Shown: positions 7,222 to 64,000, numbered from the stretch's first letter. The stretch: 64,000 nt of DNA from Syntrophorhabdaceae bacterium (GCA_963666485.2 CAXXUO010000004.1:64001-128000); one strand, 5' to 3'. The notes: a model not told the origin generated them from the letters alone. Made by a program: numbers and translations.

Positions 7222-8163
7222 CTATTTCTTGTTATCATCAATGCGCAGGTGGGTGTAGCCGCCCTGAACGCCGAATTTCTTGTAATACTCAACCGCTGCC
7301 TGCGCTATGCCCGGCAATCCTGTAAATGTTATTTCGCCGAAATCTTCAAACGTCCGCGAAGGGTCGAGAAGGATTGACGGAGCGTCGTCGGGCCCGAGGT
7401 CGCGCACCTCCGGATCGGGGTACTCTGCAAGATTCATCGCTGACACAACGGAATCGTACAATTCCCTGATCGACACGTCCGTGCCCGACGAGAAATGGTA
7501 TGTTCCCTTGCCGATGCCGTCACACGCCCGTACAACGTGCACGGCGAGGTCTTTGACAAAAACGAAATCGCGCCTGGATTTTGTAACAAAGCACCGCTTG
7601 CCTTCGGACAGCCTCTGGTAGAATATGGGCAGAGGGCCGCTCACATTGCGGGGCCCGATAATATTGGCAAGCCGGAATGTGACAAAATCGACGCCGGAGA
7701 TCTCGATGAGGTCTTCAGCGGCCGTCTTCGTTATGGCATAACTCGAGTTTGCGGGAAACTTCGGATGATCGAGCCGTATGGGCTGCTGGAGCGGCTTGAC
7801 CCCGTAACATAACGATGTCTGGAAGTAGATGATCCGGCGAACGCCGAATGTTTTTACCGACTGCAAAAGGTTCGCGGCCCCCACGACATTCGTCAGGGAA
7901 TCATTGTACCAGTCATCCGGGTCCTTGTACGATGCCGCGGTATGAACGATGACCTCAGGCCTGAAGCCCTTCACAAGACTGTCGACCACACCTTTGTCTG
8001 CGATCGTGTCGATCACCACTTCGAGGTTCTTGTGGCCGGTCAGGTGTTCCCGCCTTCCGGTCGCCAGGTTGTCGATCACCAGGACCTTGTCTCCCCGTGC
8101 AAGGAGAAGCTCCACCACATGGGAGCCTACCTGCCCGCATCCTCCTGTCACAAAAACATTCAT
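7222..8163 (-). CDS. wbmH: SDR nucleotide-sugar oxidoreductase, WbmH-like
   Basis: HTAASYKDPDDWYND, GPRNVSGPLPIFYQRLSEGK, GPDDAPSILLDPSRT. Confidence 0.88.
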   Translation of the reverse strand: MNVFVTGGCGQVGSHVVELLLARGDKVLVIDNLATGRREHLTGHKNLEVVIDTIADKGVVDSLVKGFRPEVIVHTAASYKDPDDWYNDSLTNVVGAANLLQSVKTFGVRRIIYFQTSLCYGVKPLQQPIRLDHPKFPANSSYAITKTAAEDLIEISGVDFVTFRLANIIGPRNVSGPLPIFYQRLSEGKRCFVTKSRRDFVFVKDLAVHVVRACDGIGKGTYHFSSGTDVSIRELYDSVVSAMNLAEYPDPEVRDLGPDDAPSILLDPSRTFEDFGEITFTGLPGIAQAAVEYYKKFGVQGGYTHLRIDDNKK

Positions 8164-41018: not shown

Positions 41019-42159
41019 TCATGTCCTGTCAAGCGCATTATTTACCTTCTCGACAACAAACGACTGCTCCGATTCTGTCATGCCAGGGAATAAAGGAAGG
41101 GTGATGGTCGTATCCTCGCCGAGACATGCGTTCGGAAAAACATCCGGGTCTATTCGATACTTATCCGCATAATATCCCAGGCGATGCACCGCCAGCGTTC
41201 CGGGCCTTGTCTGAATATCGTCCAACGAGAGGTGATCCATGATCCTGTTTCTTCTTGACCGTCCTCCATCCAGGAGTCTTATCACATAGGATTGATACGT
41301 GTGATGACATTTTTCGGGAATGACCGGTACGGCAATAGCCTCTATGTGCCGCAGGAATTCTGTATATCTTTCGGCAAGCATGATCCGTTCTTCGAGCAAT
41401 TTATCAAGCTTATGAAGTTGGGCGACCCCAACTGCCGCCTGTATATCGGAAAGCCTGAGATTATAACCCAGATTATTGAATGTAGACATAACCCATGGTT
41501 TTCCTGGATCGTCGATTCCTGGAGGAAGTCCTGTTGCGCCGTGGTTCCTCTGACTTCTTACCCTGGCGGCGATATCAGGTTTGTTCGTGGTGATCATTCC
41601 GCCTTCACCCGTGGTGACGACCTTCCGGGGGTGAAATGAAAAACAGCCCGCATCACCAATTGCTCCCACGGGTTTTTCTCCGTACAACGTGCCTACCGCA
41701 CATGCTGCGTCTTCAATAACAAAGAGGCCATTTTTCGCCGCGATGTCCATGATCTCGTGCATCTTCGCGGAAAGCCCGAAAAGATGTACCACTACTATTG
41801 CCTTTGTCCTGTCCGTGATTGCTCTTTCCAACGCAATGGGGTCCAGGTTATACGTATCAAGCTCAATATCCGCAAAAAACAGCCTTAGCACCGGTGTATT
41901 CCGCGCAGTGAGCCGAAGTCACCCATGTGAATGCCGGTACGATAACCTCGTCGCCGGGTCCGATTCCCAGCGCCAACATGGCAAGGTGTAAGGCGGCCGT
42001 ACAGGAGGTGGTTGCCAGTGCATGATCTACATGATGGCGCTCCGCGAACATCTTTTCAAAACGCTCAACGAACGGGCCCTGGGTCACCCACCCCGAATCC
42101 AGGCATTCCTTGAGAAGAGCTATTTCTTCTTCGTCAAACTTAGGAGCTGTCAGGTTCAT
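41019..42159 (-). pseudogene. DegT/DnrJ/EryC1/StrS aminotransferase, one +1 frameshift (possibly a sequencing error)
   Basis: Two overlapping ORFs (SCTAALH..PAFTW; VHLFG, EDAAC, SFHPRK). Removing one T from the T6 run at 41874-41879 gives AKAVFADIE and 380 codons. Confidence 0.9.
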
Positions 42160-43166
42160 AAACGACCTCTTCCACTAAATATTTTGGTAACCGCTACCCT
42201 CAGGGCGGCTATCATATCATCCGGCAAATCGACATTCACGGAACGATCCAATCGATCTATGCTGTTTTCAGTCGGACTGATGGTACAACCCAGTCTGTCC
42301 AATCCACAGCAAATACTCGACAGCGTGCTGGAAGGTTCAGAGCAAAGCTGCTCGTAAGTGATCTGCAAGGAATTTACATGTACCCCCTTCAATTCCTCGT
42401 CTATTTCCCGCCGGCATTCAAATACCTGCATCGACACGTCATGGACGGGGTCGGGGCCGTGACCCGCAAAGGGCCACGTGGAAGGTTTCAAAGACCACCA
42501 TGTACTATAGGAACCAAAACGTTCGCGCCGTGATTTCAGGATCGACGCTGCTGTCATGAAGGGATCACGTTTGATGTGTATAAAAATGCTTTTGCCGTAT
42601 ATTTCAGTCAGGTATCTTGCCTGAAGGCCGCATATGACATTTTTGAAGACAACGGGGCGCCGAAATTGACCGAGAATTTCATGGATAAGAACTTTTCTTA
42701 GCCCTTCCGCATCGAGTTCCCCCAGATGTTCCTCGGGTATCTTGTGCGTGGGGAATTGATCCAGTTTAAGCCAGTGACGCCAAAAATACCCAAATTCATG
42801 CGGTTCGTGAGCGCCTTCTGTCGTCCCGAAATTAGACCGAAAGGAAATATTACGCCGATAATCATCGCCGAGAAGCATTCCGGATAGCCTAATACCCACT
42901 GACGGCCTCATCCAAAAACGTGCAACAACATTATTGATATATCCCACCGGAAGATAACGGCTCAGCATCTGTGAAAGAAGCGTCGTTCCCGATCTCGGGG
43001 CGCCTACTATATATACGAGAGGGTATTGCGAGTCCTTCGTTTCATCTTCATCAGGAAGGTCCGCTGACTGAAGCACTTCGTTCAATTTTGCTAGATATAC
43101 CTCGTCGGCCGTTTTCTTACGAAACGCAAGTGCCCTTATCCCTGGTTCATGCGGATCAAATTCCAT
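42156..43166 (-). CDS. Sulfotransferase
   Basis: PAPS-binding IVGAPRSGTTLL, RDP...AS, YEQL. Confidence 0.88.
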   Translation of the reverse strand: MEFDPHEPGIRALAFRKKTADEVYLAKLNEVLQSADLPDEDETKDSQYPLVYIVGAPRSGTTLLSQMLSRYLPVGYINNVVARFWMRPSVGIRLSGMLLGDDYRRNISFRSNFGTTEGAHEPHEFGYFWRHWLKLDQFPTHKIPEEHLGELDAEGLRKVLIHEILGQFRRPVVFKNVICGLQARYLTEIYGKSIFIHIKRDPFMTAASILKSRRERFGSYSTWWSLKPSTWPFAGHGPDPVHDVSMQVFECRREIDEELKGVHVNSLQITYEQLCSEPSSTLSSICCGLDRLGCTISPTENSIDRLDRSVNVDLPDDMIAALRVAVTKIFSGRGRL

Positions 43167-48582: not shown

Positions 48583-51441
48583 CTAGTTATTTCTTATTTC
48601 CATGTTGCAGCAATTCATCCCTGATTCGAATATTTTGTATCCCCGGGGATGCAGTTTTCCGTTCTGGCTGTTCATGAATACTTCTGTGGCGATACCTTTC
48701 TTCACGTCCGGAAAGATAAACATGCCATTATAACCGGTTTTTGTCGACAGGTATTCTTCGTCCTGTCTCAAGAATACCTCAAGCCCGTCTTCCCCGGAGA
48801 CAACGCGGCCGCCTATTACCGCGCTTTCGGGATGCCTGTGATCGACCCTCTCGGGGAGAAAAGAGATTCTGTGTAGTTCCACGAAGTCCCCGTCGGCGGA
48901 GTTATCTCCTGTCAGGATAACATGTATCCTGGACACCGAACCCGTCGGCAAACGCCTTGTTTGATTTCCGTTGTGTGACATGTCCTTCAGGTCGTATGTT
49001 CTATATTTGACCTTGCCCGCCTCGCTGCCCTTCATGCGGATACCGGCGTATTCGATACAACGGTCCGCTTCCTCGCACCATATGAACTCGTCCCGGTCTT
49101 CCACGGTAAAGCCTATACCGAGAAACATCGAATCACTATTCTTTCGGTATGCGAAATGAAAATAGCGCCCATCACCCAGTTCGAGGGAATCAGGTACAAA
49201 TGTAAGGCGCGCTGCACCGGGGCCGTTTTTCGTGAATTTGCCAACCGATAACCCGGCATCAAAATAATAGTCCCCCCCGGAGACGTCCAGCACCCCGGCC
49301 TGGTCGAAAAAACCGACCTTTCCATGAATAACCTTCTGGGAAGTGGCATCAAGGATCGTTACACTATTCCTTCCTGACTCATCCGGCCCGTTACATTTGT
49401 AAAAGTGATAAAGCTCGTTGTCGATGATCACGTCGGTCGTCTCGGGGTCGTCGACGTATATCGTGGCTCCGTGCAAGAATGATACCTGCCGTGAAATGAT
49501 CGGGCAGAAATGGTTGTGCCACAATCTGATGGAGACCGTTTTCTGACCTATGTCCAGGTGCCGGTCCAGGTCTCTCGTCATTGCAGCGTAACGGGCCAGC
49601 ACTGATGCTGGAGTCACCCAGATCCTGGGACCGCTCAGGCCTGATAAGTCCGCCTGCAGATCGGAGAGCACAAGAAGCGCCTCTACTGTCTGGTCGTTGA
49701 ATATCTCCTGCTCGGGCTGAAGGAGGATGTCCGCAGCTCCCCAGTGCACGTAAATGATTGCCGCATGGCCGGGCCTGACAGCTAATTGATGTATTGCCTC
49801 GGACAGCTGAAAACCGAGGTTTTCATTATGATGAATATCTGCATGCCTCGCATAATAGGGGTGTCCTTCCTTCTCTTCTGCGATATAGCGGGGTACTATG
49901 TAGATCGGACGGTCGTCTCGGCTTAAATCCTCGATCAACAGTTCTGTTATCAGGTTGGATGCGGAGTTCAGGGGGACATGGGGGTCATCTGCGGCAAACG
50001 CCATACGTGCCGGGCATATGAACGATACCCCTCTTTGAGCGAGCAGATCATAGTGATAGGCCGATGAGGAGCGCAGGTCAGCTTCGCCTGTTCTGTAAGG
50101 ATTGCCTCTAAAGATCGGTCCTTTGAAAGTGGGTGAGGTCATGGTTGAGACAAATTGCTTTCCGCCATGGCACACCATTAGGATGGGGATCATTTTCAGA
50201 GACTCCAAGACCGGCGCCTGACTCTCAACTATTGCCCTGTGAAAGGGCAGTGCACAAACACCTTCCAAGGCAAACCTGCCGCTGCCTTTTAGCGACAGGA
50301 CCATACGGTCAATAGATGCGCCCGGCACATCCAGCCTCGATCCAACCGGCTGGTTTCTTTCCTTGCTGTATAGCAGATATTTACCGTCGACAAGATCTGC
50401 GGGCTCCCATCCTGAACTCGACAGGAGTTCTCCCCTCAATACGACTGTATGGCTGCCGCCTCTGTTGTCGGTGAGGATCAATTCCGCTGTTTTCACGCCC
50501 GGATCGATCTGTGCGTTTATGACCAATCCATAGTTGCCAAAGGCCAGATAACCTGTATCCCGGCGATTAACGTCAATAACCTGTTCGATCTCGCCCTGCA
50601 CCTGAATGTCCAAAGGGGAACAAATGTTACCCGGCTCGACAAAATCATCATCCCAGGAATGGCATGAATCAAACCAACCGCGGTGGAACATCTCCAACAA
50701 TTCTGACGCGGTTTTGTTGTTAAGGTCCCCTGATGTATTACGAAAAAAGATACACGCATTCTCCGGCTGGCATGAGAGGTTCCCCGAAGGCCAGAAGGAG
50801 TCTCCCTGGTTAACGCCGATCTGGGATTCAATGTACTCGTGAATAGACCTGGCCATTCCGACGGTCATGCCGTCCACGTCGCTTGCAATGGCCAGCGCAT
50901 TGTTATAGGGAAAGGGCAAAACACGGCAATTCTTGCCCAACCGTGGGTCAACCTTCTGGTCTGTGAAAGGACGGGTCTTCTGTGCAAAAGCAATGCGCGC
51001 GTCCCTCGCTGCACCTGCGAGGTCCGCTATGTCCTGCCTCCTTTGCGGCTTGACGGGTTTTAAGATATAGACCCTCCCGTTCTTTCTGGGGTCGGAATTA
51101 TCTGAAGTGCTGAAATAGAGAAAGTTGTGCCAGTGTGAATAACCGCCTGAACCTCTGTTGATTATGGTTGCGTGCATGGAATGCGCAGGAAATAGTTCTT
51201 TGCCGTCCTCAAAAAGAATATACGTTGAATTCCTCGGTTTTTCCGTGGAGTCACCCTGTTCAGCCGGAAGCTCCAATCTTACCGAATATCCGAACGGCTC
51301 CAGGCAGTTGATATCGTTTGTGTTAATTACTCGTACCCCGGGGTCTTGCTGCGGCAATGTATCGACAGTTACAGGATCGATCACATCCCCAACCGCGCCT
51401 TTGAAGAAGATTTTTCTTATGTTCCTGATCATGGATGTCAT
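48583..51441 (-). CDS. 952-aa protein: unnamed His-rich N-terminal domain + polysaccharide-deacetylase-like region
   Basis: PFPYNNALAIASDVDG, DSCHSW, VCHGG, IIYVHWG; N-terminal domain shared with 52231..53505. Confidence 0.55.
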   Translation of the reverse strand: MTSMIRNIRKIFFKGAVGDVIDPVTVDTLPQQDPGVRVINTNDINCLEPFGYSVRLELPAEQGDSTEKPRNSTYILFEDGKELFPAHSMHATIINRGSGGYSHWHNFLYFSTSDNSDPRKNGRVYILKPVKPQRRQDIADLAGAARDARIAFAQKTRPFTDQKVDPRLGKNCRVLPFPYNNALAIASDVDGMTVGMARSIHEYIESQIGVNQGDSFWPSGNLSCQPENACIFFRNTSGDLNNKTASELLEMFHRGWFDSCHSWDDDFVEPGNICSPLDIQVQGEIEQVIDVNRRDTGYLAFGNYGLVINAQIDPGVKTAELILTDNRGGSHTVVLRGELLSSSGWEPADLVDGKYLLYSKERNQPVGSRLDVPGASIDRMVLSLKGSGRFALEGVCALPFHRAIVESQAPVLESLKMIPILMVCHGGKQFVSTMTSPTFKGPIFRGNPYRTGEADLRSSSAYHYDLLAQRGVSFICPARMAFAADDPHVPLNSASNLITELLIEDLSRDDRPIYIVPRYIAEEKEGHPYYARHADIHHNENLGFQLSEAIHQLAVRPGHAAIIYVHWGAADILLQPEQEIFNDQTVEALLVLSDLQADLSGLSGPRIWVTPASVLARYAAMTRDLDRHLDIGQKTVSIRLWHNHFCPIISRQVSFLHGATIYVDDPETTDVIIDNELYHFYKCNGPDESGRNSVTILDATSQKVIHGKVGFFDQAGVLDVSGGDYYFDAGLSVGKFTKNGPGAARLTFVPDSLELGDGRYFHFAYRKNSDSMFLGIGFTVEDRDEFIWCEEADRCIEYAGIRMKGSEAGKVKYRTYDLKDMSHNGNQTRRLPTGSVSRIHVILTGDNSADGDFVELHRISFLPERVDHRHPESAVIGGRVVSGEDGLEVFLRQDEEYLSTKTGYNGMFIFPDVKKGIATEVFMNSQNGKLHPRGYKIFESGMNCCNMEIRNN

Positions 51442-52230: not shown

Positions 52231-53505
52231 TTATTGTTTTTCAGCCCAGCAGAAAAAATTAATACCCCGGGTGCCTTTTTCCCTGTATCTCATTTCCCCC
52301 CGATACATTGCCATAGCCAGTACTCCATTGATCTTTGAATGTATTGCCTTAAGGGATCGTGACTTCCAGAGCCTTGTCTTCATTTCCGCCAGGGGAAAAT
52401 TCTTAAAATTGAATTTTTCTGCAATGTAAATGAACATGAACCTGGGGTCGCAATTGAATTCATTATATTGCTTAATCCTGAACCCAACGGGTTCCAGGTA
52501 TTTTTCGATCTGAGGTCTTCCAATCAAATTCTGCGTGTACAGTTTCCGATATTCAAAGAAGGTTTTCTTTCCTCCAAACATCTTGTAAATGTGGAACGGA
52601 AACCACTTCTTATAATACAGTTCCGTAAAACCGCTAAAGAAAGCATTGCCGCCCTTGGTCAATATATACTGGAACGCCTGAAAGATCTTTTCCGTTTCAG
52701 GGCTGTCAAAATCATCGATGCTGTGGATCATTACGATCGTCCTATAGGTCCCGTGCTTCAAGGTCTGCGGAACCTTCAGGTCAAAATAGACGAACTCCTT
52801 GTGCGGCAAACGGTCCTGAAATTGCCTGCAATGATCGAAGCAGTATTCCGTGCCGGTCGTAAAACTGTAATTCAGGTAGCATATTGAACTGGCGCCTTCT
52901 CCCACGGCAATCTCGATAGAGGGGTCAACTATTTTCATGCTGCGAAAAAATTCACTGTCAAGATACTGTCTGAAATATTCGGTCAGAAGCGAAGGCCATC
53001 GAGGCTCGGTTAAATCGAAGATCGATTCGTAGAATCTGCAGAAATCCGCTTTATCGAAATCGACGTTTCGAAAAGACAACAGCTCGGGTAAAAACAATAG
53101 CCATGTAAGAATTCGGGTTACTATCCAGAGCAACATTCCGACGGCCGGCCTGTAAACGTCGGCCAGATACTTCCTTATAAGGGGAGGGACAATTCTCTTC
53201 CGCCGGGAAAGAACATACTGCATCCCATTTGACCGGGGATCGGAATTGTTGCTTGAAGAAAAATAGAGAGTATCTTCCCAATGTGAATATCGTCCATTTC
53301 CGTCGTTCACGATCTCCGAATGAAATGAATGCCCCGGGCCTATTTCAGAACTGTCTTCGAACAATTTCCAGGAAGAATGACGAGCATGACCGGAATCATC
53401 TCCCTCAGACTTCGAGAGGGGAAGACGTACTGTATACAAATTGCCGGAGACATGGTATACACCGGCAGGTTGAATCCTTATCTCTTTGTTTATGATATTC
53501 GTCAA
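52231..53505 (-). CDS. Unnamed His-rich domain + divergent methyltransferase-like domain
   Basis: IEIAVGEG and ILTKGG; N-terminal repeat of the 952-aa protein domain. Confidence 0.55.
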   Translation of the reverse strand: MTNIINKEIRIQPAGVYHVSGNLYTVRLPLSKSEGDDSGHARHSSWKLFEDSSEIGPGHSFHSEIVNDGNGRYSHWEDTLYFSSSNNSDPRSNGMQYVLSRRKRIVPPLIRKYLADVYRPAVGMLLWIVTRILTWLLFLPELLSFRNVDFDKADFCRFYESIFDLTEPRWPSLLTEYFRQYLDSEFFRSMKIVDPSIEIAVGEGASSICYLNYSFTTGTEYCFDHCRQFQDRLPHKEFVYFDLKVPQTLKHGTYRTIVMIHSIDDFDSPETEKIFQAFQYILTKGGNAFFSGFTELYYKKWFPFHIYKMFGGKKTFFEYRKLYTQNLIGRPQIEKYLEPVGFRIKQYNEFNCDPRFMFIYIAEKFNFKNFPLAEMKTRLWKSRSLKAIHSKINGVLAMAMYRGEMRYREKGTRGINFFCWAEKQ

Positions 53506-53562: not shown

Positions 53563-54807
53563 TTACTGTCTTCTTATATCGCCCCATTTTGCATCGCCTT
53601 CATACGCATATGGCACCGGGGCGCGCCATGAATAACGCCGCTTTACGAAAAACTTGCGGCATCGTCTCTCCAGGGCGATAATATCACCTTCTTTTCTGAT
53701 CAGTGTGTCCCGGGTAATTCCGAGTGTAAGCCAATATTCACCTGCGCCGAGGAGGAGTTCGTCTGTAGAAATCTCAAACGTGCCTTCCCCGGCCAGGCCA
53801 TCAAAAATAAGTCCCTGTTCATTGCCGTCAGAGCCGGTGATCCAAATACCTTCAGAACTCTCTATTCTATACAAAGGCATGATATCCTGTTTTGGGCTGC
53901 TGCCTTTCCATGAAAAACGGAGTCTGAAGGGCTCTCCCTGCATGAACGTCGTCTTCTCGATTCCATCGTGATCACATGTCTTTATGTCGTAAATCTCTAT
54001 CTCGCCGGTACCTTCACGGTATGACGCGCTGTGAAGAGCATTTTGCAGTTCCTGTTCCGGCTCTTCCGCTTGAGTCCCGTGGATCAATTGCTGCACATAT
54101 TTTTCATAGGCCATGCATACGCCCATTGATACGTCGTAAAACTTCACCTTGCCTTCATGTATCCACAATGCCCGCTGGCAGATACGTTTGACAAGGTCGA
54201 GTGTATGCGAAACAAAAAGAACTGTGGTGCCGCTCCTGCAAATATCGTAGATCCTTTCAAGACATTTGCTGACAAAGTAGGAGTCGCCGGCTGCAAGCGC
54301 CTCATCCAGAATGAAGATATCGGGTTCAATGCTCATTGCTGTTGAAAACGTCAATCTCGCCTGCATCCCGCTTGAATATGTTTTGAAGGGCCTGTCGATA
54401 ACGCTGCGTAACTCGCTAAAATCAATAATGGACTCTACCTTTTTGTCAATTTCGTCACGACTCATCCCGAGGCACATGCCGCCCATATATATATTTTCCC
54501 GTCCTGTATATTCGCTGTGAAATCCGGATCCCAGTTCAAGGATAGCGGATATCTTGCCATCTATATGAACATTACCGGATGTTTTATCGAGAGTGCCTGC
54601 CAATATCTTCAGGAGAGTACTCTTGCCGGCTCCGTTAGGGCCTATGATCCCTACCACCTCGCCTCTTTTTACCTCAAACGAAACATCCTGCAATGCCCAG
54701 AACTGCTCATGAAACGGCTTTCCGGTCACAAGTTCTTTGAACATGTCTTTGGGCTTGTTGTAAATCTTGTACATTTTTGAAAGGTTCTCGACCTTGATAG
54801 CACTCAT
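53563..54807 (-). CDS. wzt: Polysaccharide ABC exporter ATPase with C-terminal Wzt_C domain
   Basis: [24 protein letters not shown], ~170-aa C-terminal extension. Confidence 0.93.
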
Positions 54808-54822
54808 AAATACCGTTCCCTG

Positions 54823-56727
54823 TTATTTCCCTGATATGATCTCTTTACGATAAAGGTATTCAAGGATCTTGTCTAGGATTCCGGAAACATCTTCCGATTC
54901 CGTATTTACCACGATCTCCGGATCGAGCGGTTCTTCATAAGGGGATGAGATTCCGGTAAACTCAGATATCTGACCACTGCGGGCCTGTTGATAAAGTCCA
55001 TGGGGGTCCCTTTGCGCACACGTATCGATGCCGCACTGCACATAGATCTCGATAAAACGGGAACCGTCTATAATTGACCTGACGAAGTCCCGGTCTCTCC
55101 GGAAAGGGGAGATGAAGGTGCATAAGACTATGTTCCCTGCTTCGTAAAAAAGTCTCGCCGTTTCACCTGCGCGCCGTATATTTTCACTTCTGTCCCTGTC
55201 GGAGAACCCGAGATCCCCGCATAATCCATGCCTTAAATGATCTCCATCCAAGAGCATCGTCAGGCAATCCATATCAAAGAGCTGTCTTTCCAGGCGTTGC
55301 GCAATTGTTGATTTTCCCGATCCGGAATAACCCGTAAACCAAAGAACAGCCGCTCCGTGATTATTCCGGAATTCACGTTCCACGCGGCTTATATTGCACT
55401 TGTGCCACACGGCATTTGGCGACCTCATCCTAAGGTCTTCCGTACTGGCAGACTCATTGATAATCTCTCCCAGTGAACGGGAAGCGCCACGGATGACCCC
55501 GGCAGCCACCGTATTGTTGCTCAAGGCGTCTATAAGAATAAAACTGCCCGTTGCCCTGTTCGTTTTGTAATTATCGAAAAACACGGGTTGGGAGGTGCGG
55601 ACCTGCACTCTGCCGATCTCATTGAGACCAAATGTGTCCGCCGCCTCGCGATGCAGGGTGTTCATATCGATCTTATAAGTGATGCTGTCGATAAATGCCT
55701 TTACAGACCGGGTGGTGTGTTTTAGGATATACGGTTTATCACCGGACAGGGGTGTTTCATCCATCCAGCATATCGTGGCGTCGAATTTATTGCTGATGAC
55801 AGGGACGTTATTTTTCCGGACGATCATGTCGCCGCGGCTGACGTCGACCTCGTCCTCCAGGGTCATCACGACAGATTGTGGGCAAAACGCCTCGGGCAGT
55901 TCGCCGTCATATGTCACGATCCGCTTGACGCGGGTGGTGCGGGCCGAAGGCAGGACGATCACCTCCTCGCCCGGCGAAACAGTGCCGGAGACGATCTTCC
56001 CCGCAAATCCGCGAAAATCAAGATGGGGCCGAATAACGTACTGGACGGGAAACCGGAAATCTATAAGGTTCCTGTCGGCTGAAACATGGATGTTCTCCAG
56101 GTAATGCAGCAAGGTCACATCATCATACCACGGCATATTGCCGCTTTTTTCAACGACGTTGTCACCCCTCAGGGCAGAAACAGGGATGAAGACGATGTCG
56201 TGGACGTCAAGCTTTTCCGAGAACTCGCCATACTCCTCCACTATCCCATTGAACACATCCTCGGAATAATCGACAAGATCCATCTTGTTGACGGCCACCA
56301 GGATCCTCGGTATCTGCAGGAGCGATGCGATGAACCCGTGGCGCTTCGACTGGGTCAGCACCCCATTTCTGGCATCGATAAGGATAATGGCGCAATCGGC
56401 TGTCGACGCGCCTGTCACCATATTGCGCGTATATTGAACATGTCCCGGCGTATCGGCTATGATGAACTTTCTTTTCGCCGTCTCAAAATAGCGGTATGCG
56501 ACATCGATAGTGATCCCCTGCTCCCGCTCCGCGGACAGTCCGTCGAGCAGTAACGCCAGGTCTACGTCTGCCAGGCCCTTGCGTTCCGATGTCTTCTGTA
56601 TGGCGGCATACTGGTCTTCATAGATGGATTTCGTTTCATACAGCAGGCGCCCGATAAGGGTGGATTTCCCGTCATCGACGCTGCCCGTCGTCGTAAAACG
56701 CAATATTGACTTTTCCCCGCCAGGCAC
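54823..56727 (-). CDS. cysNC: Sulfate adenylyltransferase large subunit fused to APS kinase
   Basis: GSVDDGKST, AEREQGITIDVAYRYF, NKMD; C-terminal WFTGYSGSGKST, LDGD, FISP. Confidence 0.95.
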   Translation of the reverse strand: MPGGEKSILRFTTTGSVDDGKSTLIGRLLYETKSIYEDQYAAIQKTSERKGLADVDLALLLDGLSAEREQGITIDVAYRYFETAKRKFIIADTPGHVQYTRNMVTGASTADCAIILIDARNGVLTQSKRHGFIASLLQIPRILVAVNKMDLVDYSEDVFNGIVEEYGEFSEKLDVHDIVFIPVSALRGDNVVEKSGNMPWYDDVTLLHYLENIHVSADRNLIDFRFPVQYVIRPHLDFRGFAGKIVSGTVSPGEEVIVLPSARTTRVKRIVTYDGELPEAFCPQSVVMTLEDEVDVSRGDMIVRKNNVPVISNKFDATICWMDETPLSGDKPYILKHTTRSVKAFIDSITYKIDMNTLHREAADTFGLNEIGRVQVRTSQPVFFDNYKTNRATGSFILIDALSNNTVAAGVIRGASRSLGEIINESASTEDLRMRSPNAVWHKCNISRVEREFRNNHGAAVLWFTGYSGSGKSTIAQRLERQLFDMDCLTMLLDGDHLRHGLCGDLGFSDRDRSENIRRAGETARLFYEAGNIVLCTFISPFRRDRDFVRSIIDGSRFIEIYVQCGIDTCAQRDPHGLYQQARSGQISEFTGISSPYEEPLDPEIVVNTESEDVSGILDKILEYLYRKEIISGK

Positions 56728-57683
56728 TAGAAGTAGCCTTCCTTCTTCTTCTGTTCCATCGATGAGTCGCTCGTCAGGTCAATGATGCGGTTTTCGCGTT
56801 CTGACTTGCGGGCACGCCTCACCTCGCCAATGATACCGTCTATTGTCGTCGATCCCGATTCGATCGCACCCGTGCACGGAATACATCCGAGGCTCCGGAA
56901 ACGGCTCATGACAATTTCGACCTCTTCGCTATCAGTTCCCTCGCCCTGCCCGTCACCCCCTGGCGTCCCCTTCCCCCCTGGGCCATTCACGGTTGAACAG
57001 GAAGACACCGGGATCAGGATCCCCTTTCTTCGGATCACGGGCCTTTCCTGTGCGTAATAGATGGGCACTATAGGTATGTTCTCGAGTTTTATATATTGCC
57101 ACACATCCTGTTCCGTCCAGTTGCTTAAAGGAAAGACGCGGACGGTCTCACCCTCATTTATGCACGTATTGAACAGGTCCCAGACCTCGGGCCGCTGGTT
57201 CTTGGGGTCCCATTGTCCATGCGGATCTCTAAGAGAAAAGACCCTCTCTTTTGCCCTTGATTTCTCTTCGTCCCTTCGTGCCCCGCCAAACGCGGCGTCA
57301 AAACCATGCTTCCTGATGGCGTCGAGCAGCGCCCCCGTCTTAAGGTAGCTGCAGCATTTGTCGACCCCTATCTTCAACGGATGGCATCCGTTCTCGATCA
57401 TCTCCTCGTTGCGTTCCACTATCAGCCTGGCCCCGATCTCCCGGCAGAAGCGGTCCCGGAATTCGTACATCTCCGGGAACTTGAAGCCGGTGTCTACGTG
57501 CATCAACGGAAAGGGGAATTTCCCCGGATAAAAAGCCTTCTGGGCAAGCCTGACCATAACGCTCGAGTCTTTTCCCACGGAATAAAGCATGACGGGATTC
57601 TGAAATTCGGCAACAACTTCCCGCATTATATGTATGGATTCGGATTCGAGCTGCCTGAGAAAAGAGATGGTGTAAGAACTCAT
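56727..57683 (-). CDS. cysD: Sulfate adenylyltransferase small subunit
   Basis: [36 protein letters not shown]. Confidence 0.96.
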
Positions 57684-58531
57684 CAGCTGATCTCGCCGCT
57701 TATGTATGCTTTTGTTCTTTCATCTTTTGGATCGTTCAGGAATTGAACTGCGGGACCGTATTCAACCAATTCTCCCATGTAGAGAAAGACAATATAGTCG
57801 GCGATCCTTTTTGCCTGCCGGAGAATATGGGTCACGACAATTATCGTGTATTTCTGTTTCAGCAATCTGAACTGCGCCTCGACGAGCTTCGCCGAGATGG
57901 GATCCAGCGCAGACGTCGGTTCGTCGGCGAGAATGATCTCCGGCTCGATGGCGAGCACGCGGGCGAGTGCCAGTCTCTGCTGCTGGCCGATGGAAAGCTT
58001 CGAAGCAGGCGCGTGCAGCCTGTCCTTCACCTCTTCCCAGAGTCCTGCCAACCTCAGGTAATACTCTACGAGGAGATTCATTTCCCGCTCTTTGTTCCCT
58101 TTTTTGATTGTTTCTTTCTTTTCAAAGAAACCGTCAAAAACATGGTTGAATTTTTCTTTCTCCGATATCTTTTCGAAGATGTTGCCACCGTTGATCTTAT
58201 GGATGCGCGGCCCGAAGGCTATGTTGTCATATATGGACATGGGTAAGGGGTACGGCCTCTGGGGCAGGAACCCCACCCTCTTCCTGAGGTCTATAACATC
58301 GGTCCCGCTCCCGTAGATATCGGTCCCGTCTATATATATGTCCCCCGTCACCCTGACATCCTCGTTCAACTCAAGAAGCCTGTTCATACTCTTGAGAAGC
58401 GTGGTTTTTCCGCACCCGGATGGCCCGATAATAGCGATTATCTGTTTTTCCGGAATATCAAGGATGATGTTTTGGAGGACCTGGTGGCTCCCGTAGGACA
58501 CCGTCAAGCCGTCCACATGGATTGTTGACAT
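57683..58531 (-). CDS. pstB: PstB-like ABC ATPase
   Basis: [36 protein letters not shown]. Confidence 0.88.
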
Positions 58532-58540
58532 GAACAAGCC

Positions 58541-59389
58541 TTATCGAATGAGGTGCTTCGAAAATCTCCAGCCCAGAAAACGGGATACGATACTCACAAG
58601 CAATACGATCATGAGAAGTATAAGCGCCGAAGCGAAGGCCCTTTCCTGGACCTCCGGTACAGGGGTGCCGGCCTGGAAGAACACGGCAAGCGGCAGTGAC
58701 GCGACGGGATCCAGCAAAGACCCCGGTATCTCATCCGTGTACCCGGCGGTAAATAGTATCGATGCGGCATCGCCGATGCCGCGTCCGAACGCCAAAATCA
58801 CCGCGGTGCAGATCCCGGGGAATGCCTGCCTGAATATCACTGAAAAGGTCGTTTCCAACCGGGTAGTGCCGAGGGCGTACGATACCTCCTTTAGCTCGAA
58901 AGGGACCATACGGATCGCCTCTTCCATGGACCTGATCATAATGGGCAGCATAAGAAGCGTCAGCACAATTATCCCGCCCAACAGCGAAGCACGCAGCCCG
59001 AAATAGACCATAACAACGAATCCGAAAGCGCCATAGACGATCGAGGGCGTTCCCCAGAGTATATCGAGTATCAAACGCGTATAATCCCCGAAAATCCTGT
59101 GCGTGTACTCCTTCTGCAGGGCAAGCGCCACGGGGAGGCTGATCATTATCGCGATGATCAAAGAGCCCGACACAAGCAGGAATGAACCGACGATCGCGTT
59201 TGCGATTCCCCCTTCCCTTCCCAGGTAATAACCTCCCTTCGGAGTGCTGAAGATCATGGAGAGGTTCATGGCCGAAAATCCTTTAGCGGCAATGACCATG
59301 ACGATACCGACCAGGGACAAAAGGACAACTGTCACCGAAGCGATCATCAACGCTTTGAATATGTTTTCTTCCAGATTCCTTGAATTCAC
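58541..59389 (-). CDS. pstA: PstA-like ABC permease
   Basis: GTPSIVYGAFG, ALGTTRLET, GRGIGDAA. Confidence 0.88.
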   Translation of the reverse strand: MNSRNLEENIFKALMIASVTVVLLSLVGIVMVIAAKGFSAMNLSMIFSTPKGGYYLGREGGIANAIVGSFLLVSGSLIIAIMISLPVALALQKEYTHRIFGDYTRLILDILWGTPSIVYGAFGFVVMVYFGLRASLLGGIIVLTLLMLPIMIRSMEEAIRMVPFELKEVSYALGTTRLETTFSVIFRQAFPGICTAVILAFGRGIGDAASILFTAGYTDEIPGSLLDPVASLPLAVFFQAGTPVPEVQERAFASALILLMIVLLVSIVSRFLGWRFSKHLIR

Positions 59390-60289
59390 TCAGTCTCCGG
59401 AAACACTAAGCCTCAATAGGGTAAAATGCGCCGTAACGCTGAAACCGGCGACGATCAGGAGCAGTATGAGCGCTGCGAGCATCAAGGCGGAATCGTACAG
59501 TGGGATCGACATGACCTCCCCGTAATTATTTGCGATCAAGGCAGGTAACGGGTATGCGGCATCGAAAATGGACGACGGTACCTGCGGAACGTTTCCGACA
59601 ACCATCAATACGGCCATGGTCTCGCCGAAGGCCCGCGCAAACCCGAGGACCACCGCGGCAATGAGCCCTCTTCTGGACTTTCGCAGCACAACATATTTCA
59701 CCGTCTCCCACCTCGTTGCCCCCAGGGCCAGTGCAGATTCACGTACCTGTGCGGGTACCATCCTCAGCACCTCCAGAGAAACAGAGATAACGAACGGGAC
59801 GACCATAACCGCCAGAATGATCCCGCCCGACAACAGGCTGTATCCGGTTGTGTCCATCCCCAGCAATTCGCCGATCTTGCCGACAAACGGCACTACTACC
59901 AGAATTCCGCAAAGTCCGTAGATAACGGAAGGTATTCCGGCCAGTATGTCGATGATGAGATGTGCGAATTCGCGAAAATGCCTGTGAGCATACTCTGACA
60001 GGTAAATAGTGCTCAAAAGACAGATCGGCATCGAGATGACCATGGCAAGCAGTGTGACCTCGACCGTGCTCACGATAAAGGGAAAAAGTCCGAATTGATT
60101 GTTGAGCGGATGCCATGACGAAGACAGCAAGAGACGTGCCAGGGACGTCCCGGATATGATCGGTAACGATTTAAGCAACAAACCAAAAAGAATTATGAAA
60201 AACACTACACTGACAAATATCAGGCTGCAGCGCATTCCAAGGCTGGCGACGAAGTCCTTGGACCGTCTGATGCGAAGCCAGCCTTTCAT
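59390..60289 (-). CDS. pstC: PstC-like ABC permease
   Basis: LAGIPSVIYG, ALGATRWET, RAFGETMAVLMVVGN. Confidence 0.9.
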   Translation of the reverse strand: MKGWLRIRRSKDFVASLGMRCSLIFVSVVFFIILFGLLLKSLPIISGTSLARLLLSSSWHPLNNQFGLFPFIVSTVEVTLLAMVISMPICLLSTIYLSEYAHRHFREFAHLIIDILAGIPSVIYGLCGILVVVPFVGKIGELLGMDTTGYSLLSGGIILAVMVVPFVISVSLEVLRMVPAQVRESALALGATRWETVKYVVLRKSRRGLIAAVVLGFARAFGETMAVLMVVGNVPQVPSSIFDAAYPLPALIANNYGEVMSIPLYDSALMLAALILLLIVAGFSVTAHFTLLRLSVSGD

Positions 60290-60296
60290 ACCGCCA

Positions 60297-61298
60297 TTAC
60301 CGGCCAAGCTTTTTCAATGCCTCTCTGGCCTGGCCTTGCTTTATCTTCAGATACCCAACCTCATCGACGTACCGCTGCCCATCGGATAGGATCCATTTCA
60401 CGAAATCCATTGCAGGGCCCTGGAACTGCCCTTTTGTGACGAGATAAAGATCCCGTGCAGGAGGCGAAGGATAGACTCCCGAATTGACCGCCTCTATGGC
60501 CTCGTGCTTATTCCTGAGCCTTTCCTGGGGATCGATCTTGCCGTTCTCGTTCACATCGATCGGGACCACCTGGAGTCCAGGGACCGGTTTGCCGGTTTTC
60601 ATGTCAAAGGCATAGTTAAGATTGTTGAACCCAATCGCGTTCTTGTCTTTTCTTACAGCTTCGGCGACACCCGGATCGCCGTACACGGCGACACCCTTAA
60701 GGTCCTCCTGGTTCTTTCCAAAGTATTTCGCCCAGGTTTCCGCGGCACCACATGAATCGGACCTGGTGTAGACCCTGACCTTTTGATGGGCCGATGTTCC
60801 TGCAAGTTCTCCCCAGGTCATGGACCGTCCGGATATCCACAGATCCACAAGTGTCTTCTTTCGTATTCCTTTTTCCAGTATCTGCGGAAGAACAGGATTA
60901 TCTTGATTTATAGTGGGGAAAACCGCGTCTTTCACGACGGCGACGGAGAAGACGCCCCGTTTCGCCTCCTCGGGCCTGATCTCGCGGGAAACCATTCCAA
61001 TATCGACGAATCCGTTCGTGGCATCCACGATACCCTTTCCGGCCCCTCCAGCCGAAACGTCTATCCGGACCTTCGGATAGATTTTCTTATACTCTTCGGC
61101 CCATTTGACCATCATGGGATAGAGGGCCCATGCTCCCGAAACTCTGATCGTCCCTTGCACCAGGCCAATTTGTGCTGCTTTGCCCTGTCTTTGTTGCCCC
61201 CCTTCAGACGCGTTGACAACAGACAACCCCAGGAAGAACAGAAAAAGTCCACATAGGATGATCAAACAACGTTTTGTGCCTTGATATCGCGTGCGCAT
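60297..61298 (-). CDS. pstS: PstS-family oxyanion-binding protein (atypical ligand motifs)
   Basis: Signal/TM after ATG at 61298; SGAWALYP, AGGAGKG, DIGMVSR, RSDSCGAAETW, RDLYLV. Confidence 0.8.
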   Translation of the reverse strand: MRTRYQGTKRCLIILCGLFLFFLGLSVVNASEGGQQRQGKAAQIGLVQGTIRVSGAWALYPMMVKWAEEYKKIYPKVRIDVSAGGAGKGIVDATNGFVDIGMVSREIRPEEAKRGVFSVAVVKDAVFPTINQDNPVLPQILEKGIRKKTLVDLWISGRSMTWGELAGTSAHQKVRVYTRSDSCGAAETWAKYFGKNQEDLKGVAVYGDPGVAEAVRKDKNAIGFNNLNYAFDMKTGKPVPGLQVVPIDVNENGKIDPQERLRNKHEAIEAVNSGVYPSPPARDLYLVTKGQFQGPAMDFVKWILSDGQRYVDEVGYLKIKQGQAREALKKLGR

Positions 61299-61327: not shown

Positions 61328-62176
61328 CTACAGAACGTTCCCAAACATGACCTTCAGCTTTCGGAATATCCGGTACCCAACATAGAACGTTCCTACGCTG
61401 AGACAGATATAGACAACCCAGGCCCACCAATGTTCAAATCGGCCGAAATAGAATATATCCTGATAGCACCAGGCGAGATAGCTAAAAGGATTGAGATACA
61501 AAAGGGGGCGAAAGATTGCCGGTACCTGGTCGGGTAAATAAAAGATCGGCATGATATACATGCCCAGCAAACAGAAAACTTGTGTGAAGTCTTTGAGGTC
61601 GCGAAAATAGGTCCCGATCGAGGAAAGGACATACGACATGCCGATCATGCCCAGGACCTGGAAAAAGACCGGCACCGGGATAAGTACGTATGTCCACAGA
61701 AGCCCCTTGTGAGTGATAAGAACATACAGGATCAAAAATACTGTCAGTATGATCTGGGTGACGAGTGATGATATGACAGTCTTGATAGGAAGGACCTCTA
61801 CGGGAAAAATGACCTGCTTTACAAGATTCGAGTTTCCCGTTATTGATGTCGTGGACTTCATCATGGTTTCCTGGAATGCCATCCAGGGGATGAGGGCGCA
61901 TAATAAATAGGTCGTGTAATCCAGGGGAAGTTTATATGTCCCCCCGATCTTCATCTTGAAAACGTAGGCAAAAATGAAAACATAAACGGCGATAAGCGCG
62001 AGGGGATGCCCTACCGCCCAGAAAAGTCCGAATAATTGCCCGGCATACCGTTCCGATATCTCCCTCTTCGACATTTCCCATGTCAGTTGGCGATGCCGCG
62101 TCAGGAGACTTAATATTTCCTGAATAGCGGCAAAATGATTCTTTACATTAAATACTTTGCTGATAAGCACTTTCAT
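61328..62176 (-). CDS. wzm: Polysaccharide ABC exporter permease
   Basis: RYAGQLFGLFW, NLVKQVIFP, YFRDL, PIFY, LNP. Confidence 0.93.
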   Translation of the reverse strand: MKVLISKVFNVKNHFAAIQEILSLLTRHRQLTWEMSKREISERYAGQLFGLFWAVGHPLALIAVYVFIFAYVFKMKIGGTYKLPLDYTTYLLCALIPWMAFQETMMKSTTSITGNSNLVKQVIFPVEVLPIKTVISSLVTQIILTVFLILYVLITHKGLLWTYVLIPVPVFFQVLGMIGMSYVLSSIGTYFRDLKDFTQVFCLLGMYIMPIFYLPDQVPAIFRPLLYLNPFSYLAWCYQDIFYFGRFEHWWAWVVYICLSVGTFYVGYRIFRKLKVMFGNVL

Positions 62177-62186
62177 GGATCACTCT

Positions 62187-64000
62187 TTATCCAAGGAATC
62201 TTTTACACCAATTCTCAAAATTAAGAAGGGACCATATCAAAAGTCTTCTGTTCTCGATGCCGTGCAAATGTTGGTCGACAAGCCCCTGTATTGTTTCCTT
62301 ATGAAGGTAATTATAGAGTTCGGCCCGGTCGTTATAGAGCATCCGTTTTACATAGTCTATACTCTCTCCCTTGAACCAGCTTGCGTCCGGTGCGGAGAAT
62401 CCCTGTTTTTCGCGCTCCGTTATCTCGACAGGGATGTATCTCTCCATTATCTTTCTGAGGATCAATTTGCCGTCCTGCGTCCGCTTGAAATAATTGTCCT
62501 GCTTCGGGCCCGGCTCGTTTTCGTTGGGGCGTTCTATATCCTTTCCGAGGTTCCTGAGCTTGTACCGCACCGGTATGCGTATTGCAAAATCGACCAGATC
62601 ATTATCGAGAAACGGGACTCGGGTTTCAAGTGAATGCGCCATGCTGAGCTTGTCGTCGACAAGGAGAAGGCCGTGAAGGAAGGTCCTGGCCTCGAAGCAC
62701 AGGGAATGATTTATGTAATCTTCCGGCGTCCGCAGGACATGTTCGTGGTCCAGGAAGACGCTTTTGAAAATATCCCGCGTCCACACGTGCCGGACATCAT
62801 TCCAAACCGGTTGAAACACATCCTTGATCGTCTTGTTCGGTATGAGCCTTTGCCAGAACTGGTAGTAATTATCGACATAGTCCTCGAAATTCGAGCTTCC
62901 CGCCGCCCGGTAGTAACGCCATGGATACCCGCCGAAAAGCTCGTCGCCCCCCGTCCCGGCAAGAACGACCTTAACGAATTTGCTGGCAAGTTGTGCAACG
63001 TAGTAATTGGGATAGCTCTGCCCTACCCGCGGCTCTTCAATATGCCAGGCCATCATGGGCATGATGCGTTCCATGTCGCCTGATTTAAGGACCATCTCGT
63101 AATGCTCCGTTTTGAACAAATACGACATGTACTCGGCGCCGGACCTCTCGTCGTACGTCACTTCGATACCCGATGCCGAACTGAGATCAAAGCCGCATGT
63201 AAAAGACTTGATATACGGTATCTCCTGAGCAGCCAGCGCCGTGATGGAGCCTGAATCCATACCGCCGCTGAGGTACGCGCCGACGTCCACATCGCTGACC
63301 AGCTGCCTTTTTACTGCCTGACGGAACAAGCGGTCCAGCTCTTCTATGTACTCTTCCTCGGCTACCGGGGATTCGGGTTCCTTGAACATAAAATCCCAGT
63401 ATTTACGAAAGCTGAGGGAGCCAGTTCCTTTGTCCAGTGAAATGCTCGCCCAGGTTGCAGGCGGAAAGAGCCGCACGTTCTTCAGGAATGTCCTGTCCGT
63501 AAAGATATTCTGGAATGAGAAATACTCGACCAGCGCTTCGAGGTCCAGCTCCCTTTTCAGGCGGGGATACGTGATAATTGCCTTTTGCTCCGAGGCAAAG
63601 AGCAGCACATTATCCACGACCGCGTAATATAACGGCTTGATGCCGTACCTGTCACGGGCGAGGAAAAGCTTCTTCTCGACCGCGTCCCAGACCGCGAACG
63701 CGAACATCCCGTTGAACCGGTCGACACAGGCGCTGCCCCACTCTGCGTACGCGTGCAGGACAACCTCGGAGTCGGATGTCGAGATGAAGCGATGCCCAAG
63801 AGACTGAAGTTCAGCCCGCAGTTCCCGGAAGTTATACACCTCACCGTTGTAGGTCAGGGCATACCTCTTATCGGGCGTGACCATGGGTTGATGGCCCGTC
63901 GGCGTGAGGTCTATGATCGAGAGCCTGCGATGGCCGAAACCTATGCAGCCGTCTATATATATCCCCTCGTCATCGGGCCCCCGGTGGGCAATGGCGGTCG
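62187..64000 (-). CDS. asnB: Asparagine synthase-like amidotransferase (5' end beyond window)
   Basis: Frame is open to the window edge (AIAHRGPD..GHRRLSIIDL); SGGMDSG, GTGGDELFGGY. Confidence 0.92.
   Translation of the reverse strand, partial: TAIAHRGPDDEGIYIDGCIGFGHRRLSIIDLTPTGHQPMVTPDKRYALTYNGEVYNFRELRAELQSLGHRFISTSDSEVVLHAYAEWGSACVDRFNGMFAFAVWDAVEKKLFLARDRYGIKPLYYAVVDNVLLFASEQKAIITYPRLKRELDLEALVEYFSFQNIFTDRTFLKNVRLFPPATWASISLDKGTGSLSFRKYWDFMFKEPESPVAEEEYIEELDRLFRQAVKRQLVSDVDVGAYLSGGMDSGSITALAAQEIPYIKSFTCGFDLSSASGIEVTYDERSGAEYMSYLFKTEHYEMVLKSGDMERIMPMMAWHIEEPRVGQSYPNYYVAQLASKFVKVVLAGTGGDELFGGYPWRYYRAAGSSNFEDYVDNYYQFWQRLIPNKTIKDVFQPVWNDVRHVWTRDIFKSVFLDHEHVLRTPEDYINHSLCFEARTFLHGLLLVDDKLSMAHSLETRVPFLDNDLVDFAIRIPVRYKLRNLGKDIERPNENEPGPKQDNYFKRTQDGKLILRKIMERYIPVEITEREKQGFSAPDASWFKGESIDYVKRMLYNDRAELYNYLHKETIQGLVDQHLHGIENRRLLIWSLLNFENWCKRFLG

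Follow-up and report, generated by a model that had tools for sequence, protein, structure and literature searches.

Sulfate-binding proteins depend on backbone NH donors. How phosphate-binding proteins exclude sulfate is a classic problem of selectivity; the discrimination amounts to about five orders of magnitude (PMC5381212; this and the other articles below are cited from partial texts). In PBP-1 of C. perfringens, an S-type PstS, phosphate is bound by the backbone NH groups of Thr12, Ser13, Ser41, Gly130 and Thr131, by the hydroxyls of Ser11, Thr12, Ser41, Ser59, Ser129 and Thr131, and by Arg125, and Ser13 accepts the proton (PMC5381212). Synechocystis SphX no longer bound phosphate once its residue at the Ser13 place was replaced (Thr17Ala), binding by PBP-1 became about 30-fold weaker with Ser13Ala, and Thr131/Thr148 has been proposed as a second, back-up proton acceptor (PMC13614923). 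In the membrane part of E. coli PstSCAB, phosphate is bound by PstA Arg220 and by PstC Arg237 and Glu241 (PMC12976172). Five sulfate-transporter families are recognized in a survey in whose available text the term 'Pst' is absent (PMC5840216). Here we describe a pstSCAB-like gene set followed by cysD and cysNC in a 64,000-nt stretch of DNA from a Syntrophorhabdaceae bacterium (GCA_963666485.2 CAXXUO010000004.1:64001-128000; hereafter the window, to which positions refer), together with its homologs. Sequence comparisons indicate that the four pst-like genes probably encode an ATP-driven sulfate importer which evolved from an S-type PstSCAB phosphate importer. Such a Pst-derived sulfate importer had been proposed in a first-pass annotation of the window, and the proposal is strengthened by gene linkage, loss of the phosphate site, separate pst-phoU operons, lack of an Sbp/CysP match in the source genome and published mutagenesis, sulfate itself remaining the predicted ligand.

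The gene order on the minus strand is wzm, pstS-like, pstC, pstA, pstB, cysD, cysNC and wzt, with successive intergenic gaps of 29, 7, 0, 9, -1, -1 and 15 bases. The module itself consists of the following features:

60297..61298, minus strand: solute-binding protein of predicted PstS fold, 333 aa, with a hydrophobic N-terminal leader (PF12849; entry P0001)
59390..60289, minus strand: PstC-type permease (TIGR02138, 252.6 bits, cut-off 196.45); presumed start codon, in-frame TTG at 60307
58541..59389, minus strand: PstA-type permease (TIGR00974, 197.9 bits, cut-off 193.45)
57683..58531, minus strand: PstB-type ATP-binding cassette (ABC) ATPase with an internal insertion of about 35 aa (PF00005; TIGR00972, 308.8 bits, under the cut-off of 343.2)
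57681..57685, minus strand: TGATG overlap of the pstB stop and the cysD start (read from the sequence)
56727..57683, minus strand: CysD, catalytic subunit of ATP sulfurylase (TIGR02039, 434.6 bits, cut-off 396.6)
54823..56727, minus strand: CysNC, GTPase subunit of ATP sulfurylase fused to adenosine 5'-phosphosulfate (APS) kinase (NF004035, 916 bits, cut-off 715; PF00009 and PF01583)

Both gene overlaps reported in the first-pass annotation were found at base level: the pstB TGA (57685-57683) and the cysD ATG (57683-57681) share one base, as do the cysD TAG (56729-56727) and the cysNC GTG at 56727, giving TAGTG. A near homolog of cysD (69-80% identity, with the alignment starting at residue 1) directly followed pstB in 11 relatives on genome contigs, at a gap of at most 2 nt in nine of them and of 13 and 35 nt in the other two. 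Since tight gaps recur in nine of these 11 relatives, the pstB-cysD overlap is not a matter of chance, and the overlaps suggest translational coupling of pstB, cysD and cysNC.

The binding protein missed both curated PstS models, with 112 bits on TIGR02136 (cut-off 206.6) and 64 on TIGR00975 (cut-off 205), and the best E value to PstS models among 77 family members was 4.6e-35. An AlphaFold2 model built from the 77-row alignment (predicted local distance difference test score, pLDDT, 93) nevertheless has the PstS fold: it matched PstS proteins at Z 22-27, its 29 best rows were all PstS, and TupA/ModA followed at Z 14-16; no Sbp/CysP structure was among the 50 rows of this fold list, an absence not counted as evidence. 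The closest solved structure by sequence was that of PBP-1 (PDB 4q8r; E 4e-17, or 2e-26 with a profile; about 26% identity). The segments SGAWAL, GGAGKG and DSCGAA, which had been singled out as alanine-rich versions of phosphate-binding segments, are present and align with those of 4q8r. Window residues A56, W57, A58, A86, S104, R179, C183 and A185 occupy the places of PBP-1 Ser11, Thr12, Ser13, Ser41, Ser59, Arg125, Ser129 and Thr131, respectively, so that six of the seven Ser/Thr hydroxyls of the PBP-1 phosphate site are lost, while the Ser59 equivalent, Arg125 and a Gly/Ala-rich backbone are kept. A Ser stands where D-type PstS proteins carry their discriminating Asp.

These changes are shared by the family. 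Both places of the proposed HPO4(2-) proton acceptors (Ser13 and Thr131), as well as the Ser41 place, were Ala in 76/76 relatives, the Thr12 place was Trp or Phe in 76/76, and the Ser129 place was Cys, Ala or Ser in 65, 9 and 2 relatives, respectively. By comparison, among 41 canonical S-type controls, Ser41, Ser129 and Thr131 were present in all, and Ser or Thr stood at the Ser13 place in 36. The 76 relatives are full-length sequences from 80 genome loci, one frameshifted sequence and partial matches having been dropped and one locus having given two rows, and the patterns that found them lay outside the site motifs. When all family loci were considered, Cys occupied the Ser129 place in 150/164 and Trp/Phe the Thr12 place in 161/161 rows with a letter; for the 80 metagenome loci included, the scan patterns contained the motifs, which makes site invariance circular there and leaves only the 76 rows as a test.

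The gene neighbourhoods of 164 family loci (the best 80 of 84 genome-contig loci, 4 from a phylum sample in which 5/301 genomes, source genome included, carried the family, and the best 80 of 566 metagenome loci) were compared with those of 43 controls. Two of the loci, L032 and L091, are identical in sequence, and 156 clusters were formed at 95% identity. The controls comprised the three pst operons of the source genome and 40 of the 54 further canonical PstS matches obtained when 121 genomes of the same phylum were sampled. Activation genes (cysD, cysN, cysC or sat) occurred in 48/164 family loci and 0/43 canonical ones, activation genes or CysH in 52/164, and any sulfur marker in 64/164. 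When only the 68 loci with long flanks (5 kb or more downstream, 3 kb or more upstream) were considered, these figures were 33, 35 and 42, respectively, and 15 of 33 long-flank clusters at 70% identity held an activation gene or CysH. Softer markers (sulfite reductase, MetY, MetX, ThiF, JAB, CysG, TauE, DASS, arylsulfotransferase, sulfatase, ChrA) were seeded from the family loci and therefore lean in favour of linkage. Two apparent cysN matches (L120, L162) proved to be other GTPases and were discarded, and two apparent cysD matches (L034, L054) were relabelled CysH before the final counts. The opposite outcome, that homologs would reside with PhoU rather than with sulfur genes, was not observed: with the same seeds applied to both sets, PhoU was found in 0/164 family loci and 29/43 canonical ones, and a strong PhoB match in 1/164 and 18/43.

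Three different partner enzymes were encountered: CysDN (40 loci with cysD), Sat (5 loci, over or matching NF003166) and CysH (L034, L054 and L077 over the NF002537 cut-off, L163 via PF01507). They were encoded upstream, downstream or divergently, in at least five phyla plus archaea. Syntrophales-like loci carry cysD-cysNC after pstB, and Syntrophorhabdus-like loci a PF01663 gene, cysD and cysN. In Segatella/Prevotella, sulfite reductase, cysG, cysD, cysN and cysH precede pstS. Bathyarchaeia possess a divergent sat-cysC pair, a Methanomicrobiales bin has cysC-cysD-cysN ahead of pstS, and cysH adjoins the transporter in three Chloroflexota loci. Furthermore, an Rrf2 gene was found in 36/164 family loci and 0/43 controls; these Rrf2 proteins carry 0 to 5 Cys, and CymR was the best-scoring model, below its cut-off, for the one that was examined.

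An alternative reading of the pocket is that it accommodates a sulfur oxyanion other than sulfate, or various unprotonated oxyanions (thiosulfate, sulfite, selenate, molybdate, tungstate) of which sulfate would be only one, the pocket Cys possibly serving a reduced sulfur ligand. Loss of the proton acceptors would indeed predict an unprotonated oxyanion rather than sulfate as such, and the prevalence of this Cys, softer neighbours such as TauE, DASS, a chromate exporter and the Sbp/CysP-like protein of L019, and molybdenum or tungsten genes near L003-L005, L043 and L090 would suit a broad specificity. However, the recurrent partners CysDN and Sat use sulfate, the molybdenum and tungsten neighbours are sporadic and not common to lineages, and CysD recurs more often than any thiosulfate- or sulfite-specific enzyme. 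We therefore regard a broad or different oxyanion as unlikely, and sulfate as the probable ligand.

Analysis of the source genome, which is 99% complete, was in line with sulfate import. As anticipated by the first-pass annotation, no phoU is adjacent to the module, PhoU matches being confined to other contigs (C1, C3 and C9), and no phoB or phoR was found among the open reading frames (ORFs) near it. Three canonical pst operons are located elsewhere (C3:148-152 kb, C3:180-187 kb and C1:774-781 kb), all with phoU and two also with phoR-phoB; phosphate uptake is therefore covered elsewhere in this genome. The pstA gene of one of these operons appears to be split by a frameshift (C3:181599-182096; two tblastn pieces in different frames) and lies beside an IS256-like transposase ORF. 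As for sulfate, no Sbp/CysP match, no Sat and no DASS were found in the source genome, and the cysD of the module is its only one (single tblastn match).

Among 41 related genomes, the family was present in six and CysD in five, every CysD lying within about 4 kb of the transporter. CysD was thus found in 5/6 carriers, the sixth being a 330-contig bin, versus 0/35 non-carriers. Only 1/19 genus mates carried the family, which was therefore acquired or lost as a cassette. The genomes of kin are not independent of one another, and their profile alone cannot separate function from hitch-hiking, whereas change of partner across phyla can. Sbp/CysP exceeded its cut-off in 1/54 carrier genomes (a figure without a baseline), in addition to a weaker match inside L019, and this rarity fits a replacement of CysPUWA. 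CysD or Sat occurred somewhere in the genome of 39/44 carriers without a local one and of 9/14 control genomes, which is weak support. A tree was built from 37 family and 22 control rows, subsampled from 148; in it, the family occupied one side of a branch (Shimodaira-Hasegawa-like approximate likelihood ratio test, SH-aLRT, 99; stem 0.91) and is one clade; one D-type row formed a long branch and the root is unsure. The family is large: at E 1e-20 or better it counts at least 8000 proteins, and with a threshold of E 1e-30 there are 385 representatives of 50% clusters. Source names mostly refer to phosphate transport among the best 120 proteins.

Two groups of more distant sequences were also encountered. 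Among the lower-ranked 50% representatives (P0147-P0269, 310-340 aa), the anion-site motifs are in many cases strongly degenerate, and these proteins may represent an offshoot that evolves fast or does not bind. A distant haloarchaeal homolog (36%; L244:5755-10527, NZ_CP101459.1), whose site is altered differently, lies after a 'putative sulfate exporter family' gene and before pstC/A/B, and perhaps represents a sister group with another ligand.

In the membrane part, the equivalents of E. coli PstC Arg237/Glu241 (aligned to 9k3s_B) and PstA Arg220 (9k3x_A) are kept in the window proteins. Across the family, the Arg220 place of PstA is R in 97% of 118 rows and the Arg237 place of PstC is R in 88% and K in 9% of 129 rows. 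Such membrane arginines fit any oxyanion and do not speak for sulfate in particular. The GET motif of PstA is GDA in the family (D in 116/118 family rows, E in 34/34 controls), and other family-wide changes are a Trp before the GxPS motif and a Tyr that replaces Arg in the periplasmic loop of PstC. These nearby membrane changes were given no weight because Glu224 of E. coli is dispensable for phosphate transport (PMC12976172). In PstB the Walker A, signature, Walker B and His motifs are intact, and TIGR00972 is its best match despite the score below cut-off.

Several observations weigh against sulfate import. One SulP match was detected in the source genome, and the importer may consequently not be the sole sulfate route. 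Arg125, Ser59 and Asp-Arg pair equivalents are kept in the binding proteins of the family, as are PstA Arg220 and PstC Arg237, the named phosphate determinants of E. coli. The linkage is incomplete: 26/68 long-flank loci were without any sulfur marker used, only 6/17 long-flank clusters at 65% identity held an activation gene or CysH, and the carriers G044 and G164 have no activation gene nearby; moreover, the control set comes from a single phylum. Phosphate-related genes were also seen, namely a phoB/phoR-like pair after pstB in L077 (where CysH lies directly upstream of pstS), a Na/Pi cotransporter with a PhoU domain in L035 and an alkaline phosphatase in L090, both on the other strand, and a porin of the phosphate-selective O/P family in 18 loci. 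Finally, no second PstS was found in 14/50 carrier genomes searched with one S-type query and TIGR00975 (completeness of these genomes is not given). These 50 were 44 carriers without a local activation gene and 6 with one, 29 other genome loci being outside the search; the 14 were 11 Bacteroidota, one of them a closed 6.7-Mb chromosome, and 3 archaeal bins. Many Bacteroidota rely on other phosphate carriers.

Taken together, such observations could point to a divergent, PhoU-independent phosphate importer hitch-hiking on a mobile cysDNC cassette. PstC and PstA exceed the NCBIfam cut-offs of phosphate equivalogs and retain the membrane arginines, the protein is the sole PstS homolog found in the 14 carriers mentioned, and source databases name it phosphate-binding, in addition to the phoBR-like pair of L077 and the O/P porins. 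Nevertheless, pairing with CysDN, Sat and CysH in varied orders across phyla is beyond what a single hitch-hiking event can explain, the site has lost both proton acceptors together with four further hydroxyls, PhoU is lacking from all family loci, the source genome already has three pst-phoU operons, and CysH is directly upstream in L077 itself; phosphate import is consequently very improbable. Equally little likelihood is attached to an organic sulfur compound (sulfate ester or sulfonate) or a phosphorylated small molecule, for whose organic group the Ala changes would make room: small residues do line the site, sulfatase, arylsulfotransferase and PF01663 phosphodiesterase-family neighbours exist in 1, 3 and 16 loci, and the haloarchaeal homolog follows a putative sulfate exporter gene, but the bulky Trp/Phe replacing Thr12 in every row with a letter argues against it, and sulfatases are rare neighbours whereas ATP sulfurylases, which need free sulfate, are common.

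For the sulfate importer that we favour, the most likely path is as follows. The binding protein would capture sulfate, its pocket, closed by W57 and C183, holding a fully ionised tetrahedral oxyanion by backbone NH groups, Arg179 and Ser104. The PstC and PstA arginines would relay the anion across the membrane, PstB would drive import, and CysD-CysNC would convert the imported sulfate to APS and then to 3'-phosphoadenosine 5'-phosphosulfate (PAPS). In the source genome, PAPS would feed a single sulfotransferase, which would sulfate the glycan exported by Wzm/Wzt, the cassette being read together with the glycan operon. Elsewhere among the lineages, this importer would supply assimilatory sulfate reduction. 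The features of the glycan branch are:

61328..62176, minus strand: Wzm, permease of a glycan ABC exporter, 29 bp upstream of the module (PF01061)
53563..54807, minus strand: Wzt, ATPase of the glycan ABC exporter with a Wzt_C domain, 15 bp downstream of the module (PF00005 and PF14524)
42156..43166, minus strand: sulfotransferase (Sulfotransfer_3), likely PAPS consumer (PF13469, E 1.2e-13)

The first-pass annotation had placed a sulfotransferase in the same cluster, and the Sulfotransfer_3 gene indeed lies on the same strand, 11.7 kb downstream of cysNC; it is the sole PF13469 match in the source genome. No assimilatory sulfate-reduction cluster was found there, so the PAPS made at the module would have one evident consumer. 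A second PAPS_reduct match, a weak one, and a NIR_SIR match were both outside any cys cluster. The proposed chain from sulfate uptake through PAPS to glycan sulfation is well supported for the source genome only; it does not extend to the whole family, since assimilatory clusters (sulfite reductase, CysH, siroheme genes) hold the same transporter in other lineages, which argues for a general sulfate supply rather than one restricted to sulfation. No tblastn match to the window sulfotransferase was obtained in the first 80 family loci, and this link is not generalised.

The module is surrounded by a long glycan locus with epimerases, glycosyltransferases, aminotransferases and methyltransferases, named by reading translated ORFs, with Pfam for some. 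The wzm and wzt genes, normally adjacent, are split by the module, whose GC content of 0.50-0.54 is about 5 points richer than that of wzm (0.458) and wzt (0.473), and in locus L010 the same module is followed by an intact wzm-wzt pair. On account of these three observations, the transporter-cysD-cysNC cassette appears to have been inserted between wzm and wzt. Promoter-like sites numbered 18 (11.3 expected) and terminator-like sites 15 (10.1 expected), and none was singled out. Downstream of wzt, the glycan locus also contains ORFs of 952 aa (48583-51441) and 424 aa (52231-53505) without a Pfam match, whose N-terminal ~70 residues are similar by eye. Four asparagine-synthetase-like amidotransferase genes (8160-10085, 14183-16123, 36095-37975 and 62187-64000) were named from sequence in the same locus.

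Other arrangements were noted among the family loci. A PF01663 phosphodiesterase/nucleotide-pyrophosphatase gene is found by cysD-cysN or between sat and cysC in 16/164 loci (e.g. L003:13440-16870, L056:3600-6700), and several of these are without cysC; a so far unstudied step that uses APS or PAPS may be involved. In Segatella, Prevotella and Dysgonomonas (L018:3200-13000, L030, L080), the transporter is clustered with sulfite reductase-TusA, ThiF, JAB protease and siroheme genes, and the pstB-like gene lies about 10 kb off or upstream, not after pstA. In Anaerolineales, a chromate-exporter-like gene and an Sbp/CysP-like binding protein gene follow pstB in L019:13439-15971; in L017, L022, L026 and L031 two to four major facilitator superfamily (MFS) genes in tandem come after the operon, and Sat is found elsewhere in open frames of about 800-900 aa.

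On a broader scale, and with somewhat less assurance than for the importer itself, we think it probable that these transporters form a sixth, so far unlisted prokaryotic sulfate-transporter family. A whole Pst ABC importer would have undergone one ancient switch from phosphate to sulfate by removal of proton-accepting hydroxyls, and would have spread in anaerobic bacteria and archaea (Bacteroidota, Chloroflexota, syntrophs, Bathyarchaeia, Methanomicrobiales, Methanoperedens) as the main high-affinity sulfate uptake replacing CysPUWA, often under an Rrf2 repressor. It would be mis-annotated as pstSCAB in thousands of sequences, and its selectivity inversion might be reversible by two or three substitutions. 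Such a family would come in addition to the five of PMC5840216 and would explain the sulfate supply of CysDN or Sat in many low-sulfate anaerobes that lack CysPUWA. A PstS-fold protein with reversed preference would also make the proton-acceptor rule testable in both directions, and metagenome counts of phosphate scavenging would need correction, given the number of related proteins and the names they bear. No description of a Pst-type sulfate importer was found in a literature search covering titles and abstract starts (most subscription journals and supplements lay outside it), and the system is apparently undescribed; in the available texts of PMC5840216, PMC6286981, PMC10322725 and PMC4501297, only other transporter families are named.

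Compared with known systems, the binding protein resembles S-type PstS (PBP-1, PDB 4q8r and 4gd5; SphX) in fold (Z ~25), Ser59, Arg125 and the Asp-Arg pair, but Ser11, Thr12, Ser13, Ser41, Ser129 and Thr131 are replaced in the family by Ala, Trp/Phe, Ala, Ala, Cys and Ala, respectively. SphX itself gave no response to sulfate in differential scanning fluorimetry (DSF) (PMC13614923). With E. coli PstSCAB (PDB 9k3s/9k3x; PMC12976172) the system shares the S-C-A-B gene set and order and the membrane Arg and Glu equivalents, and it differs by the lack of PhoU and of the discriminating Asp, by GDA for GET, by the PstC periplasmic loop and by its linkage to sulfur genes. The ModABC/TupABC importers are more remote, with 61 bits on the ModB model (cut-off 182.6), no ModA/TupA NCBIfam match in the 77 members and ModA/TupA folds ten Z units under PstS. 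The SulT system, Sbp/CysP-CysUWA, resembles the module in proposed job and sulfur-gene linkage. Pflugrath and Quiocho's structure reportedly revealed the reliance on backbone NH donors in sulfate binding. In sequence, SulT is different: TIGR00971, NF008022 and NF008106 gave no match at E 1e-5 in any of the 77 members, and scores on the CysT, CysW and CysA models were 51.0, 45.5 and 111 (cut-offs 246.1, 329.1 and 502), the permeases thus reaching 51 and 46 bits on CysT/CysW versus 253 and 198 on PstC/PstA. SulT and the pst-like family also seldom co-occur in a genome (1/54 over cut-off). The CysD-CysNC part belongs to the known PAPS synthesis module, both proteins exceeding curated cut-offs. 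The nearest precedent is B. subtilis CysP (PiT family, PMC5840216), which is likewise a member of a phosphate family without phosphate-critical residues, is encoded in an operon with sat and moves sulfate, but is a single-protein secondary carrier instead of a four-gene ABC importer with a binding protein.

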